64,000 nucleotides of DNA, from IMG/VR virus record IMGVR_UViG_3300044843_001102; one strand, given 5' to 3'. The notes beneath the pieces are model-generated. The model worked only from the letters and a program-made list of their open reading frames with translations. It was not told the DNA's origin and made no database searches. This stretch comes from an uncultured virus (IMG/VR IMGVR_UViG_3300044843_001102) (Duplodnaviria; Heunggongvirae; Uroviricota; Caudoviricetes). The translations under genes were made by a program, and so were the position numbers. Positions 2,886 to 41,546 of this stretch are shown here, piece after piece (position 1 is the stretch's first letter; every line of letters begins with the position of its first letter).

Positions 2886-3554
2886 TTACTTTTCCGCTGT
2901 CTCCTCTAGTAGTTTAATTTTATTATACAACACTGGACACATATCTTCAATCAAATTTTGATCTCCTAGATAGTATCTTTCAAATCCATCTGAGAAATAT
3001 TCTCTTAATGAAGTCGCACTGTAAGGTGTTACGAACAGTGGTTCTGTGAAATAGGATAATGTATCATACCCTACTTTTTTATAGAAAAACTGATCTAGTG
3101 ATTTAGAATATTCTGTTTTTCTAAAATATTTGTCGTCTACCGAATATTTTTGCGATAACTCATTGTAAAGTTGTTTTCTTTTCCTAAGAAACTCTTTCTT
3201 CAATAATCCATCGCCGTATATTTGTTCTGAGTATAATTCTTCTAATGAGTGAGCAACTTCGTGAATAATGTTTTCAATAATATCTTCTTCGTCGTCTTGT
3301 ACATTTGTAAGATAAATTATTTTTTTATCATAAACAGAATCAACCGCTCTATCGTCTAATGTATCATATTGTCCAATAGAAACAGCAGAAATATTTTTAA
3401 ATAAAAAGGCAGGTAAGATATTTCCTACCCGCCGACATACACTATCCATATTTATTTTCTTTGTAAGTCCATTTTTAAAATACACAGGTATTCTGCCGTG
3501 AATCATAAAATGTGCTTTTGGTGATTGCTGTATGTATTCTACGATCTTTTCCAT
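2886..3554 (-). CDS. Putative zinc metallopeptidase
   Basis: HEVAH motif plus downstream EYFSDGF. Confidence 0.65.
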   Translation of the reverse strand: MEKIVEYIQQSPKAHFMIHGRIPVYFKNGLTKKINMDSVCRRVGNILPAFLFKNISAVSIGQYDTLDDRAVDSVYDKKIIYLTNVQDDEEDIIENIIHEVAHSLEELYSEQIYGDGLLKKEFLRKRKQLYNELSQKYSVDDKYFRKTEYSKSLDQFFYKKVGYDTLSYFTEPLFVTPYSATSLREYFSDGFERYYLGDQNLIEDMCPVLYNKIKLLEETAEK

Positions 3555-26268: not shown

Positions 26269-27370
26269 ATCTACTGATTACCTATTCGTATACCATGTGT
26301 GAATGTATGTGATAGTGCAATCTATCTAACACCATTTACTTACCCTCTGACTTCTTCTTTGGTCTAGGTGGTTCTGGTGTCTTTGGATAGGGATAGGTTA
26401 CTCGTTTATCCAGCAGGACTGATTGCTTATCTACTTTCTCTACCCACTGGTTTAGTTTGTGCATGTGGTATGCCATCCATCCCATGGGAATGAATACAAC
26501 AATGCTGAGACCGATAATGAGAATGAGTTCGTTCCTAGTCATGCGATTGTTCCTCCCTCAGTAGATTGAGTGTGTGTCTTGCAATGTTCTCTGCCATTGA
26601 AAACTCACCCTCATTCATTCTAGTGTTTGCTCTTTCTCTATCCGCAAGGTAACGTGCTAGGTCAAGGATCAAATACAAACTCTTCTTATCTTCCAGTGCC
26701 ATGTTTATTCCTCCCGATTGGTTGTTATGGTTCATCTATTCGTTATAGGCTTCCGTCTTCCATTTCATCGGAGTAGTCCCATTCTTCATCGTCATCAATG
26801 TCATAGGGATACTGGTCGTCGTTCCACCCTTCTTCTTCCACGAATAGATGTTCGCGACATAGCTTACCATTCTGATCAATATACAAACGATCGTAATGCT
26901 GTCCTCTTGCTTCCGCAAGGAACTTGTATTGTTCGATATGACGGCGCATCCATGCGATCATTTGACACCTCCGTTTAATGATTTGATTGCGCTGTATAGA
27001 AAGCCAACCACAACCCCAACGAATAGCACGGGCCAGAATAGACCGAGAACAGAAATGGCAAAGAGTTTATCCCTTGCTTTGTATTGCGAATAATCCTTCG
27101 TATTCTCTGATAGATCAATCGCGACGTAGCAAGTCGTAATCAGCACACATAGGGCATACATTGTATAGAAAGACATTCGCTATCTCCGTTTATCTATCCT
27201 GCCCACAGGTGGTCAAGAGTATCTGAATAATCGAAACCGATCTCATCATCGTTTGAACGTGAAACATCAACGGATGGATCATAGTCGTTGTCCTCGCAGT
27301 AATCATATGCATATTCAAACAACTCGATTAGATCATTTCCATTCATGTTTCCCCCATTCACGATTGTTCG

Positions 27371-27448: not shown

Positions 27449-27454
27449 GAATGT

Positions 27455-27531
27455 GCTAGGGCAGGACTTACAGAACCGTACATTCCAATCGGGTTCATGC
27501 CTAATACCATTGGGTTCGTGGTTGCCCTAGC
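27455..27531 (-). ncRNA. Candidate 77-nt structured RNA containing CCGAUUGGAA
   Basis: GCTAGGGCA/TGCCCTAGC closing stem between a promoter and tRNA-Thr. Confidence 0.5.
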
Positions 27532-27544
27532 GATCGTGGGAATG

Positions 27545-27573
27545 ATTATAGCAAGTCCCACGATTTCTGTCAA
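27545..27573 (-). promoter_or_regulatory. Perfect-consensus sigma70 promoter
   Basis: TTGACA-17-TATAAT; 9-bp inverted repeat ATCGTGGGA/TCCCACGAT flanks the -10 box. Confidence 0.85.
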
Positions 27574-27917: not shown

Positions 27918-27994
27918 TGGTAGGGGCAGGTGGACTTGAACCACCGACTTTCGCCTTATCAGAGCGATGCTCTAACCAACTGAACTATGCCCCT
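27918..27994 (-). tRNA. tRNA-Ile(GAT)
   Basis: Cloverleaf, loop CTGATAA, CCA. Confidence 0.92.
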
Positions 27995-28562
27995 GTTGAG
28001 TCTGCTGAATATTCACAAACACTTCATCAAACGTTCCATCAAATACCTTTGTGCAGTTGGATGTGATCTGTGGACTCAGCGCACCCCATCCAATGCGTGG
28101 GCGACGTTGAGCTTTGCATTGATCGCCATACGTTTGCTTCTTGCTAATCTGCACGGCTTCCCATAGCGGGTCATTGTTTGCAAGCGAAACACCATACATA
28201 ACGAAACGATCATTCCGCCAATCTGTTGCATCAAGGAACAGTAGCGTATCCCATGCTTCGGTTGGACCGAATGAGATCGGGCCAGTTGAAGTGAAACACT
28301 TGACTTCCAGCCTGCCGAATGAATCTGAACGGAGATCGCCTGGAAGTTTGACCTTTCCCTTCGTGCCCTTGGGCCACAACGCAGTCTGATCATTCATATG
28401 ATTCTGAACGATAAACTTGGCGATGTTTTCGCTAACTTCCTCTGGCATGTTGGGCAATCGGCTTTTCAATCCAAGCCTCTTGTTTCGTTTCTCAATTTTC
28501 AGTGCATAGTCCTTGAAGTCTGCAAACGACTCTCTCAGTTCTGCCTCTGTGTAAACATCCAT
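27972..28562 (-). CDS. Bsp6I-family type II restriction endonuclease-like protein
   Basis: R.PNMPE.VSEN, GD...EVK (PD-D/ExK), SFGP...WD.L.F, TYGDQ...QRRPR recalled as family motifs. Confidence 0.7.
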   Translation of the reverse strand: MDVYTEAELRESFADFKDYALKIEKRNKRLGLKSRLPNMPEEVSENIAKFIVQNHMNDQTALWPKGTKGKVKLPGDLRSDSFGRLEVKCFTSTGPISFGPTEAWDTLLFLDATDWRNDRFVMYGVSLANNDPLWEAVQISKKQTYGDQCKAQRRPRIGWGALSPQITSNCTKVFDGTFDEVFVNIQQTQQGHSSVG

Positions 28563-28600
28563 TCGTATCTCCGCTCGGTCTATTGTTTATTCATTATCGG

Positions 28601-28672
28601 TGACCTTGCCGGGACTCGAACCCGGATTTAGAGATTGAAAGTCTCTCGTCCTAACCTTTGGACGACAAGGCC
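28601..28672 (-). tRNA. tRNA-Glu(TTC)
   Basis: Cloverleaf, loop CTTTCAA; CCA not encoded. Confidence 0.9.
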
Positions 28673-29194
28673 GATTGTGGGATTGTTAGTCCCGTTTGTT
28701 CCTACCACTTGAAACCAATGACTCTTTGCTCTTGCGACTTCGCTAGAAGTTCCTGCCTTTTCTTGTATTCAGAAACCGCTTTAGTCCAGTCTTCCTTTTC
28801 CTGAACAACTGTTTCACGAACCTTGTCCTTGATCTGCTTCACCACTTTAGTTGCATCCATCATTTACCTCAATCAGTTGGGGAGTTGGTGCTCGAATAGA
28901 AGTTCGCCCTGTGGACTCTGAATGATTTTTACCTTGCCCGACAGAACGAGAGACACAAGGGCAACACCAATCTGAAACTTGTTCTCGTCCTTTTCTACTT
29001 CAGTTTCCCGTAGCAGTCTAGCGAACAAAGGATCATGCTTGTTATGAAAATCAATCAGTTCTTCATTCGTGTGAACATCATACATGATGACCTCCTGCAT
29101 TTGTTAGTCCCAGAAACTTTCGTCGTAGATCCAAGAACGAAGTTGCCAATCAATAACGATCATTTGTTCCCTCCGTCTATTGTTTATTCGTATC

Positions 29195-29373: not shown

Positions 29374-29694
29374 CTACACAGAGCGAATGGCGTCGATGAC
29401 ATCTTGAATATTCGATGTATTGTAAACCACCTTGCTGAAGATTTCGACAACCCGATGTGTATCGGCCAGTTGATCGTTGAGGTCATCCAGTTTGCCGTTC
29501 ATAACCCACCGACGAATGTCCATTCGTTGGAGTTCGCCATCATCGCGATTTTCCATATCGTCAAGTTCCATACAACGATCACTAATATCGTTACACTTGA
29601 CTTCCGTCTCTTCGATTTCCTGTCGCAGGGCGATCATGTGTTCCTGCGCCTTTTGCATAACCTCAGCAATCGTCATCTTGCTTGCATCAAACAT
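29374..29694 (-). CDS. Hypothetical coiled-coil protein
   Basis: GGAGG RBS, 106 aa. Confidence 0.6.
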   Translation of the reverse strand: MFDASKMTIAEVMQKAQEHMIALRQEIEETEVKCNDISDRCMELDDMENRDDGELQRMDIRRWVMNGKLDDLNDQLADTHRVVEIFSKVVYNTSNIQDVIDAIRSV

Positions 29695-29941
29695 ATGGAA
29701 CCTCCGTCTATTGATTGGGTGTTATGGGCGAACCCAACCACGCTGAAGCAACTCCCTTACCTGATTATCAAATAGCCTTGCATTTTCTTGTTGAACTTTG
29801 CGAACCAACGCAACATCGCTGGGGTTTTCGGATTCGTAAATGCTTTCGCTAAGGTTTACCTGTTCAATCCAGAACTGTTTGAACCGCTTGGTATCTTTGT
29901 GAATGAAACAGAACAGCATTGTGAAACCTCTGTCTATTGAT

Positions 29942-30016
29942 TGGCTTGCACAAGCGGGAGTCGAACCCGCATCACGCGTATATTCACGCGCACTTTCCAT
30001 TTAGACGATTGTGCAA
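29942..30016 (-). ncRNA. tRNA-like RNA with aberrant anticodon loop and extended acceptor stem
   Basis: Perfect T-arm GCGGG-TTCGACT-CCCGC, 8-bp TTGCACAA/TTGTGCAA stem, GCCA end; CGCGT-GAATAT-ACGCG with a 6- or 8-nt loop. Confidence 0.7.
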
Positions 30017-30019
30017 GTA

Positions 30020-30128
30020 GCCGTGCTTGTCATCCACGGTTGGATGGGTTAGCTTCCAATCGGCGTAACCGTCGCCTGCTGTGCTGTTCAACCACAGCGG
30101 GATGGGTTCACTTCCAATCGGTGGAACC
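30020..30128 (-). ncRNA. Two tandem copies of a two-hairpin RNA motif (CCGAUUGGAA loop)
   Basis: Compensatory stem changes between the copies; conserved loop, bulged C and CATCC linker. Confidence 0.6.
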
Positions 30129-30138
30129 ACACCGCGAA

Positions 30139-30223
30139 TGGTGGCTTGCGTCCAACTGCATTTCCCTACAGCGGGAAACCGTTGATTGAACCCCATTCTG
30201 TTTGGGGTCTATCGCAAGCCACC
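30139..30223 (-). ncRNA. Candidate branched RNA ending in ACCA
   Basis: 11-bp GGTGGCTTGCG/CGCAAGCCACC stem enclosing two hairpins. Confidence 0.5.
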
Positions 30224-30229
30224 GTTTGA

Positions 30230-31045
30230 CTACTCGGCGTCGGTCGCCTCAATCTCGTCATCGGCATCGACCGACTCAGCATCGAGATCGAGGTCATCGC
30301 CGTCATCCGAATCCGCTTCAGCGTCAACCGAAGCGGTATTCAGCGAACCGAGGACACCGGCGAGAGTGTCGCGAGCGGCGATTGCCTCGTCACGCTCGGC
30401 GCGAACCTTACGGAGCAGATCGAGCAACTCAGCCTTGGTCAGCTTATCTTCCGACTTGCCACCCTGTTGAGCGAACGCAAGCGCCGCCTGCGGATTGAGA
30501 TACTGACCATCGGCGTTGCACTCGAACGCCAACTTTGCCTTGGACGGACGACCAGCGCCAAACGGCTCAACCTTGCTGGTCTCAGGGTTAACGAACAAAC
30601 GAGGAGCCTTCTTGGTAGCAGTCTTGGTAGCCATGGTATTCACCTTCTTGGTATTGGTATTGATATTGGAAACAACCGCCGAAACCTTTTCAGTATTAGC
30701 GCAGTCAGCGGTACGCTGCACCAACCTTTCAACAATCTTACCACCCTCAGAGATTAGCGTCAAGGCCACATCCTTATCCGCAATCTTGTAAACCGAGAAC
30801 GAACTTCCGGGTTGCTGAGTCTCAAAGATAACCGAACGCATACGCAGACTCGACAGGATCGACTTGACCTTCTGTTGCGAACGAGCAACATCGTTGTTGA
30901 ACTGCGACATGATTTGCGGTTTACCCGCAACAGTGATGAACGACGCACCCTTGGGGTTTTCGTTCAGGATCGACAGGACTTGCGAATAGAACGGCAAGTC
31001 AGCGTTCGTGTAGAGGAAATTTCCGATCTTGGTGTTCGTGCTCAT
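30230..31045 (-). CDS. GC-rich early protein with an acidic C-terminal tail
   Basis: 271 aa, GAGG RBS, first long ORF downstream of the promoter array. Confidence 0.75.
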   Translation of the reverse strand: MSTNTKIGNFLYTNADLPFYSQVLSILNENPKGASFITVAGKPQIMSQFNNDVARSQQKVKSILSSLRMRSVIFETQQPGSSFSVYKIADKDVALTLISEGGKIVERLVQRTADCANTEKVSAVVSNINTNTKKVNTMATKTATKKAPRLFVNPETSKVEPFGAGRPSKAKLAFECNADGQYLNPQAALAFAQQGGKSEDKLTKAELLDLLRKVRAERDEAIAARDTLAGVLGSLNTASVDAEADSDDGDDLDLDAESVDADDEIEATDAE

Positions 31046-31351: not shown

Positions 31352-32010
31352 ATTGTACACCAAGTAGATTCGCTTGTCAAGAGCTTGCAGTATCACGTTT
31401 CCGATTTCTGCTTCTCTCCGTCGTTTCGCGAACCGCTCAGGCTCGCTCACATTCAGGAGTTTACCACAACTTCGAACCGTTGTCAAGCCCTCGCAGTATC
31501 GCGTTTCTCAGTACCGCGTTTCTTAATCTCGGCAACCGCTCAGGTCGCCGTCACAGTCAGGATCTTACCACAACTCGGAACCGCTGTCAATACCTCGCGG
31601 TCTCACGTTTCGGTTCAGTTAGCCGTTCAGCAGAATAACCAATTTGGCAATCGTCAGACCAAGAACAATACCCTTCAGTGCGTCATTCGTAATCGACATT
31701 TCGCCTCCTTGCGGAACCATTCCGCGTTTAGTAGTCTACCACAACCAGATTCGGTTGTCAAGCCCTCGCAGTATCACGTTTGCGAATCTACTCGGTTTTC
31801 AAGGAGCGTTTGCGGTTTCAGAGCGCGAAGCCCGTTTCCCGCGTTGACCTTAGTAGCTTACCACAACTTGGAACGGTTGTCAAGACCTCGCAGTCTCGCG
31901 TTCCCCGGTTTGCCGTTTGCCGTTTCGAGAAACCGCGCAGGTCTCTCGCTTTGACTTAGGTATCTTACCCGATCTGTTTGCTGGCGTCAAGACCTCTCAG
32001 TCTGCCGTTT
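31352..32010 (-). repeat. Tandem array of six sigma70 promoters with a conserved upstream element
   Basis: -35 boxes at 31375, 31481, 31585, 31756, 31878 and 31985, each 17 bp from a TAnnnT -10 box; shared AAACGyGAkACyGCGAGG upstream. Confidence 0.9.
31619..31699 (-). CDS. 26-aa hydrophobic micropeptide MSITNDALKGIVLGLTIAKLVILLNG
   Basis: AAGGAGG RBS 4 nt before the ATG, directly downstream of one array promoter. Confidence 0.7.
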   Translation of the reverse strand: MSITNDALKGIVLGLTIAKLVILLNG

Positions 32011-41404: not shown

Positions 41405-41546
41405 AACAAACACTGGGATTTCGGAATTATCAAGTTCCATGATACCCTGAATCTTTTTAACATGTAGGATTTGAACCTACATCGCCCGGCAATCCGGGAA
41501 TTTACCACTTTAAACTAATGCAAGCTTTCTACTTCCAGTGTTTGTT
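41405..41546 (-). ncRNA. tRNA-mimic RNA embedded in a 12-bp closing stem
   Basis: AACAAACACTGG/CCAGTGTTTGTT enclosing a D-loop (AGTGGTA), CCCGG-ATTG-CCGGG and T-arm GTAGG-TTCAAAT-CCTAC. Confidence 0.65.

Follow-up and report, generated by a model that had tools for sequence, protein, structure and literature searches.

The DNA analyzed here (the window) is a stretch of 64,000 nucleotides, the first 64 kb of a 77,468-base virus record with a completeness estimate of ~37%. The stretch is present in at least 14 lake-water DNA runs, many of which may be the record's own source. All 16 tRNA genes of the window and its tmRNA are encoded on the minus strand, and the window also has GroEL-like, PhoH/PIN, lysis enzyme and cytosine methylase genes; identity of the GroEL-like protein to that of the nearest isolated phages is only 43%. 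The tmRNA is of the one-piece phage type (39205-39563, minus strand; tag ANDNVAFDYAVAA; 111 bits), and a weak tRNA at 41456-41524 (minus strand) is called by Rfam (34.9 bits) and not by ARAGORN. A G+C-richer stretch extends from 25.6 to 32.0 kb (43-57% G+C vs 30-40% around it) and has a sharp edge at ~32.0 kb. It contains seven tRNA genes, the RNA units that are the subject of this analysis, and only ORFs without known families.

The units lie in an operon headed by tandem sigma-70-type promoters (31352-31990, minus strand). Along the minus strand, tRNA-Arg (31161-31086) is followed by a gene for a 271-aa protein (31045-30230), a 213-nt interval that lacks any credible ORF (30229-30017), a non-standard tRNA-like element (30016-29942), and small ORFs and further tRNAs. 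Much of the operon is untranslated, and a scan of its minus strand from 32.0 to 27.1 kb found no intrinsic terminators. The promoter cluster consists of six tandem promoters spaced by 105 to 170 nt and resembles an early promoter cluster; five of the six fall within a family of 67-nt repeats in which a block preceding the -35 hexamer is conserved. Farther downstream, a 196-aa ORF between tRNA-Glu and tRNA-Ile (27972-28562, minus strand) matches the PADLOC REase_II model (E 4.5e-8). A related metagenome locus, L005, has no such ORF, and its tRNA-Glu and tRNA-Ile are 26 nt apart; from this comparison, the ORF looks like a nuclease gene that was inserted into the tRNA array.

The 271-aa protein (early gene at 30230-31045, minus strand) has a winged-helix N-terminal domain (pLDDT ~90 for residues 1-110) and an acidic tail. 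Its best matches in the PDB are of the MarR/PadR type (E 4e-3), with none at E ≤ 0.001, and its best score in a protein atlas, 0.79, is below the meaningful level. The family comprises 43 homolog clusters, all of them unnamed (labeled "hypothetical protein" at most), and it marks a conserved locus. A nearly invariant FGAGRPSK block and the length of the acidic tail are further features of the protein.

The noncoding stretch begins with a three-way-junction RNA (30140-30223, minus strand), which has an 11-bp closing stem and begins 6 nt past the stop codon of the winged-helix gene. Because the closing stem ends in ...CCACCA, the junction could itself be a substrate of RNase P, similar to a tRNA in size and with an end that resembles CCA. 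At the other side of the units lies the tRNA-like element (29942-30016, minus strand), which has good acceptor and T arms, an encoded CCA, a weak D stem and a 6- or 8-nt anticodon loop. ARAGORN assigns it a 4-base anticodon, and the Rfam tRNA model scores it at 37.3 bits with a 6-nt loop. By its predicted anticodon arm, the element is incapable of normal decoding, and it is likely to be an RNase P handle. A leader of the form CCAAUCAAUAGACRGAGGU is repeated before start codons at 29922-29944, 29696-29718 and 29165-29187 (minus strand) and at 71805-71824 of G000 (minus strand); one of these leaders starts with the CCA end of the tRNA-like element. Boxes related to the CCAAUC leader also occur at 26707-26728 and at 71.8 kb.

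Between the junction and the tRNA-like element lie two tandem units, which the initial annotation described as covarying RNA repeats of two hairpins each. The letters that it quoted are present and read on the minus strand (30128 to 30020). Unit 1 (30128 to 30078) and unit 2 (30070 to 30020) repeat with a period of 58 nt and are 78% identical over 51 nt. The compensatory swaps between the units also held up: on the proposed structure, 25 of 26 cells pair, as compared to 23-36% in slid controls, and 3 of the 13 pairs are double changes, of which two fall in the first hairpin and one in the second. The shuffle control on this structure is weak (64/500) because there are only two rows. The shared 10-mer CCGATTGGAA has three exact copies in the window, each of them on the minus strand (30121-30112, 30063-30054 and 27492-27483), where 0.18 are expected from shuffles and none of 100 shuffles reaches three; the rest of the 77,468-base record has none. 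If one mismatch is tolerated, the 10-mer is at chance level (4 found vs 4.09 expected). A coding reading of the units was rejected: the 70-aa ORF on the minus strand (29984-30196) lacks a ribosome-binding site and overlaps the tRNA-like element, and the period of 58 nt is not divisible by 3.

We found that the two-hairpin structure is only partly correct. The second hairpin of each unit stands, while the first is weak, with a pair probability of ~0 in context. The first hairpin has energies of -4.7 and -5.1 kcal/mol in units 1 and 2, respectively, vs -6.9 and -5.6 kcal/mol for another hairpin, S1, in which bases upstream of each unit participate. In unit 1, the upstream CGGUG (30134-30130) pairs with CACCG (30123-30119); in unit 2, the upstream GGCG (30076-30073) pairs with CGCC (30065-30062). 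Where the units differ by A/G, S1 shows a matching U/C difference. S1 and the five outer pairs of the originally proposed hairpin (S2) make up a predicted H-type pseudoknot on the minus strand. The pseudoknot of unit 1 (30105-30134) combines S1 with S2 (30128-30124 with 30109-30105), L1 (30129) and L3 (30118-30110; AUUGGAAGU), and that of unit 2 (30047-30076) combines S1 with S2 (30070-30066 with 30051-30047), L1 (30072-30071) and L3 (30061-30052; GAUUGGAAGC). By textbook stereochemistry, this geometry (L1 of 1-2 nt, no L2, L3 of 9-10 nt) should be feasible.

The pseudoknot model changes the meaning of several features to which the initial annotation had pointed. What had been described as a bulged C becomes the first base of the S1 3′ strand, and the supposedly invariant loop dissolves into the end of S1 plus L3, which varies across relatives; the 10-mer itself corresponds to the last three bases of S1 and seven bases of L3. 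The pairing suggested between GGA of the loop and UCC of the linker is not kept in either unit of L058, a relative whose winged-helix protein is 45% identical, and it is probably sterically poor, as it leaves 2 nt to cross a 7-bp stem. Minimum free energy folding prefers pairing of unit 1 with unit 2 via the self-complementary CCGAUUGG (-42.8 kcal/mol vs -25.9 kcal/mol for the originally proposed local hairpins, in a comparison of these two structures only). The folding energy of the 213-nt leader as a whole is well beyond that of shuffled sequences (z = -4.87; none of 200 shuffles as good). One variant in an RNA contig, a change of U30110 to C on the minus strand that was observed once at low depth (6.6), would break an A-U pair of the originally proposed hairpin and lies within L3 of the pseudoknot.

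Each pseudoknot is followed by a pyrimidine-rich linker and by the second hairpin. The linker is CAUCCC in unit 1 (30099-30104, minus strand) and CAUCCAA in unit 2 (30040-30046, minus strand); in the three related units described below it is CUCCCC, CUUUC and UCUCUUA, again pyrimidine-rich and after the pseudoknot. The second hairpin of unit 1 (30078-30098, minus strand) has 6 bp and the 9-nt loop GUUGAACAG, with pair probabilities of 0.96-0.999, and that of unit 2 (30021-30039, minus strand) has 5 bp and the 9-nt loop GAUGACAAG and ends 4 nt before the tRNA-like element. In a gap-free alignment of four of the five units, 22 of 24 cells of this hairpin pair and five of six pairs are changed on both sides, values that were reached by 1 to 3 of 500 shuffles. 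The second unit of L058 (L058_B) was left out of this alignment because MAFFT did not align the five units structurally; all six pairs of its second hairpin, as located by a script, are standard. A model-made alignment, which contained spurious reverse-strand sequence, was also left out of the counts. UGA is invariant at loop positions 3 to 5 of the four aligned units, and the 9-nt loops may be read as having a GNRA-type apex.

Direct searches for relatives returned little. No match to phage records was obtained by blastn with 361 nt, and the patterns CCGATTGGAAGNNAACCCATCC, GGTTNNNCCGATTGGAAGNNAACC and GAACCCGATTGGAANNNNNGGTTC have no matches in viral contigs. Among the 49 loci in viral contigs that match CCGATTGGAANNNNNNNCATCC, none has the stems of the units (best, 16.8 bits), and the three loci that match GGTTNNNCCGATTGGAAGNNAACC in species genomes, about the number expected by chance, are not unit-like (best, 22.2 bits, with broken pairs). 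A search of viral contigs for loci of the 271-aa protein found nothing, and one for the 196-aa protein found one distant locus without a tRNA and without the motif. The metagenome scan yielded only L005, in which the units are identical to those of the window and the homolog of the 271-aa protein has 75% identity. Across the RNA and tRNA-like element, L005 and the window differ at 2 of 288 nt, as compared to 23 of 529 nt in the coding flanks (Fisher's exact test, P = 0.0025), and the units show 0 differences in 123 nt. Recent recombination could explain part of this conservation, since the block of identity includes the last 87 nt of the gene.

The 43 homolog clusters of the 271-aa protein, through an alignment of 33 of them, led to two more diverged viral loci, L058 and L059, whose winged-helix genes have 45% and 41% identity to that of the window. 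In both loci, tRNA-Arg is followed by the winged-helix gene and then by a long folded noncoding stretch (z = -5.0 and -3.0, respectively). A covariance model built from the two units of the window only matches L058 at 3448-3503 (21.7 bits; E 2e-5 in 11,398 bases). This match is at the syntenic spot and beside a second unit, whose S2 is nearly the same as that of unit 2 of the window. L059 carries one unit (3388-3451), which brings the total to five units in three phages (two in the window, two in L058, one in L059). L058 also has a counterpart of the three-way junction, in which the stem of the first hairpin differs and the loop is almost the same (AACAGA vs AACAGAA in the window), and L059 has an aberrant tRNA immediately after its folded stretch, at the same locus as the tRNA-like element (3461-3536; 2-base anticodon in ARAGORN, 49.2 bits with the Rfam tRNA model).

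All five units can be described by one scheme: S1 of 4-5 bp, L1 of 1-3 nt, S2 of 5-7 bp, L2 of 0-1 nt, the return strand of S1, L3 of 6-10 nt and the return strand of S2. Their stem sequences differ: S1 is CGGUG/CACCG and S2 is GGUUC/GAACC in unit 1 of the window, GGCG/CGCC and GGUUA/UAACC in unit 2, GGGUU/AACCC and GCUGCC/GGCAGC in L058_A, GCGU/ACGC and GGUUAGC/GCUAACC in L058_B, and GGGU/ACCC and UUGCA/UGCAG in L059. The pseudoknot fits five of five units as judged by sequence compatibility, with apparent covariation in S1 and S2. When the 10 upstream bases are shuffled, S1 arises by chance in 0.009 to 0.17 of trials per unit (product, 7e-4 for three phages). The pseudoknot grammar by itself is not rare, with 0.34 matches per shuffled leader and two or more matches in 6.7% of shuffles. 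L3 is AUUGGAAGU and GAUUGGAAGC in the window, AAUAAA and ACCGUCAA in L058, and AUUGUAAG in L059; because L3 differs between lineages, CCGAUUGGAA is lineage-specific. In G001 and G002, the L3 words of the relatives have no additional copies beyond the level of the reversed-pattern control, and one near match is an ordinary start region.

A comparison with Rfam was a check that the initial annotation had left to be made, and the units match no described RNA family (Rfam 15, E up to 10); the related stretches of the relatives have no match either (E up to 1), and only tRNA and tmRNA reach the gathering score in the window. Taken together, the compensatory changes within the window and among the three phages, the lack of an Rfam match and the contigs of RNA libraries described next bear out the claim of a structured RNA and place it under selection, as opposed to coding sequence or chance. 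The three phages demonstrate conservation of a predicted multidomain RNA architecture at one locus.

Three RNA libraries, which come from three studies, have contigs over the units (X15, 30023-30182; X16, 30022-30198; X17, 30006-30154), with the qualification that these contigs carry no strand information and that DNA may be present in RNA libraries. X15 and X16 stop at 30023 and 30022, 6 to 7 nt before the start of the tRNA-like element, where a contig of a DNA run continues; these stops are a weak hint of an RNA end near 30022-30023. X17 crosses the proposed RNase P cut by 11 nt. X15 to X17 have no coverage on 28046-29032 and 29456-29878, all of which is covered by the DNA run X12, and this gives no evidence of differential expression.

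The third copy that the initial annotation reported at 27483-27492 (minus strand) proved to be a copy of the 10-mer only. The 10-mer is there, within a stem-closed leader (27455-27531, minus strand; 9-bp closing stem), as had been stated; the fold of the units is not, as both the unit model and the pseudoknot grammar are silent at this site. The fold of the leader is not beyond that of shuffled sequences (z = -1.24; 23 of 200 as good). A consensus sigma-70-type promoter (27545-27573, minus strand; 12 of 12 matches) drives the leader. The promoter-plus-leader cassette (27449-27573, minus strand) is 100% identical to its counterpart in L005 (3380-3630), and homology between the window and L005 breaks exactly at the 3′ end of the cassette, which is followed by tRNA-Thr in the window vs a ribosome-binding site and an ORF in L005. 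By this arrangement, the cassette is a portable module.

Along the minus strand, the layout thus runs from the stop codon of the winged-helix gene through the three-way junction and two modules of pseudoknot, linker and hairpin to a tRNA-like element that would not decode. We tentatively propose that the modules form a compact RNA domain that is processed from an early transcript by release at the tRNA-like element and displays L3 to a partner. Host RNA polymerase would transcribe the operon from the tandem promoters at 31.4-32.0 kb, as their consensus matches suggest, and RNase P would cut at the 5′ end of the tRNA-like element. The modules would then become the compact 3′ end of the upstream RNA and could shield it against 3′ exonucleases, while the single-stranded L3 (AUUGGAAG in the lineage of the window) may be shown to a partner. 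A mere exonuclease block would need neither a conserved pseudoknot geometry nor an identical L3 in both units. The tRNA-like handle is not universal, because L058 has the modules without a tRNA-like element after them, and the 10-mer shared with the unrelated leader at 27.5 kb is left unexplained by a processed domain. Even so, we rank this explanation as the most likely, above readings of the units as a decoy, an antisense regulator, an antitermination site or a tRNA relic.

Variation of L3 and its flanks between phages is what specificity determinants might show, and the units could accordingly be imagined as a decoy, that is, an early antidefense RNA whose repeats, like an orphan type III antitoxin, neutralize a host endoribonuclease of the ToxN/CptN/TenpN kind. 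The operon is early, the two-unit layout recurs in L058, and a phage can reportedly carry antitoxin-like repeats, as in work on PhiTE. TenpI is described as a 102-nt cassette of two non-identical ~51-nt pseudoknot repeats that enters an assembly of two toxins and two RNAs (PMC13682666), and the families of type III antitoxins listed in Table 2 of PMC3401426 have repeats of 31-62 nt in 1.9-5.6 copies; type III arrays are also described on mobile elements and phages (PMC3401426, PMC12283969, PMC13682666). The initial annotation had raised this likeness, which is borne out for the repeats themselves: two short, non-identical units in tandem (58-nt period, 78% identical), each with a predicted central H-type pseudoknot, as in the TenpI description. 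It does not extend to the rest of the locus. No terminator-like hairpin with a U run follows the units in any of the three phages, no conserved ORF follows them in L058 and L059, and no ToxN-like matches were found among the 16 ORFs of the G+C-rich stretch (Pfam, PHROGs, PADLOC); because no terminator and no toxin gene follow the repeats, this is not a type III locus. A six-frame search with the ToxN family (PF13958) was silent in the three records, as it was in all 14 control genomes. The upstream gene encodes a winged-helix protein, and the units are in synteny with a regulator gene whose proteins are 41-45% identical, which one would not usually see with a plug-in decoy. The units have no match to any Rfam 15 family, and here a hairpin follows each pseudoknot, whereas in the solved type III systems as presented in PMC13682666 the toxin is bound by single strands that flank the pseudoknots. 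We consider a decoy unlikely. The initial annotation had also likened the loops to those of CsrB. Sponges of CsrA of the CsrB/RsmZ type carry many GGA motifs in hairpin loops; in the elements of the window, GGA occurs only in the two L3 loops and the third 10-mer, and the likeness fails because three of the five related units lack GGA in L3.

The proximity of a tRNA-like handle would also suit a cis-encoded antisense regulator, in which the displayed CCGAUUGG pairs with CCAAUC(GG) boxes at the downstream ribosome-binding regions of the operon; the RNase P-processed C4 RNA of P1/P7 and the CI RNA of P4 are regulators of this kind. The two genes that come after the tRNA-like element have CCAAUC immediately ahead of their Shine-Dalgarno sequences (29944 and 29718), and a perfect 8-nt complement abuts that of a small ORF starting at 26702. 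The number of such 8-mers is what chance would give (~1.2 expected per strand in 77 kb, 2 seen), the minus strand shows no enrichment of CCAATC (28 sites vs 43 on the plus strand), and CCG is paired in the pseudoknot model, so that only five complementary bases are left; antisense regulation is thus quite improbable. The GNRA-type apexes that the second hairpins may have, each after a pyrimidine-rich box, are reminiscent of boxA and boxB of the lambdoid nut site, which consists of boxA, a spacer and boxB and works with an N-type protein. A nut- or put-like site that loads a processive antitermination factor on RNA polymerase would serve the untranslated stretches that make up much of the operon, and it would stand behind an early helix-turn-helix-type gene, with the 10-mer recurring ~55 nt after a consensus promoter. 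We regard it as very unlikely: from 32.0 to 27.1 kb the minus strand offers no intrinsic terminators to read through, no candidate factor was found, nut sites have nothing that corresponds to the pseudoknot, the linker and the hairpin are immediately adjacent, and the third element has no hairpin-plus-linker module. Least probable, and already disfavored, is a functionless sequence decayed from a tRNA or a small repeat riding the tRNA array. The units do sit in such an array, and AUUGGAA..CC.AUCC parallels the stretch from D loop to anticodon stem of tRNA-Thr(GGU). Yet neither ARAGORN nor Rfam calls the units as tRNA, the units, the junction and the third element, when aligned locally with the 16 tRNAs, score no higher than the 95th percentile of shuffles, compensatory pairs are kept across three phages, and the 123 nt of the units are unchanged in L005, where the coding flanks have diverged. 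As for mimicry of CRISPR repeats, the likeness came down to an 8-9-mer coincidence, including an 8-mer in common with a Microcystis repeat read as its reverse complement (PMC4428289, table), a match at chance level; the stretches between the 10-mers are unlike CRISPR spacers because they are homologous to each other. A literature search for the 9-mer string gave only primers and barcodes among the matches listed.

Folded RNAs of phages are far less charted than phage proteins, and the element has a defined architecture that three diverged phages retain at one locus and that RNA-library contigs cover. It lies in an early operon, where functions of host takeover and antidefense are usually encoded. 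If it is a decoy, or a processing or stability device with a tRNA-like handle, it would be a new RNA tool of early phage biology. It would also yield a search model for many more such elements, and the 43 homologs of the neighboring gene mark places to look. Doubtful, though worth stating, is the idea that the modules represent a new class of phage-borne tandem-pseudoknot RNAs that act in the manner of orphan type III antitoxins and would assemble with a host abortive-infection RNase and silence it. Such RNAs would be made early, and their lineage-specific L3 and flanks would set which toxin is caught.

Among known RNAs, TenpI as described in PMC13682666 is the closest look-alike and resembles the units in having two non-identical repeats of about 50-60 nt, each an H-type pseudoknot. 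The units differ from it in carrying an extra hairpin and in sitting within a larger RNA with a three-way junction. In tmRNA, strings of pseudoknots are joined to a tRNA-shaped element. Consecutive H-type pseudoknots upstream of, or joined to, a tRNA-shaped element are also described for tobamovirus 3′ UTRs (PMC8127992, PMC7749636). In contrast to both, the setting here is a DNA phage operon in which genes follow the tRNA-like element, the window has a separate normal tmRNA, and the Tymo_tRNA-like model scores only 12.1 bits vs a cut-off of 40. Non-tRNA RNAs are known from tRNA transcription units as well: the species 1 and 2 RNAs of T4 are freed by tRNA-processing enzymes. The leuZ 3′ external transcribed spacer is reported to act as an sRNA sponge (10.1101/2021.04.25.441314, PMC6191717). 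The units share with these RNAs the position inside a tRNA transcription unit; there is no known relation in sequence or fold, and the units have pseudoknots of conserved geometry.

GOLLD and ROOL are large, ornate RNAs associated with phages and located near tRNA genes, and they share with the RNA of the window a multidomain fold in phage DNA from lake water, next to tRNAs. The RNA of the window is much smaller, at about 210-375 nt, and its three-way junction and two modules may together constitute a new ornate ribonucleoprotein scaffold of lake phages.
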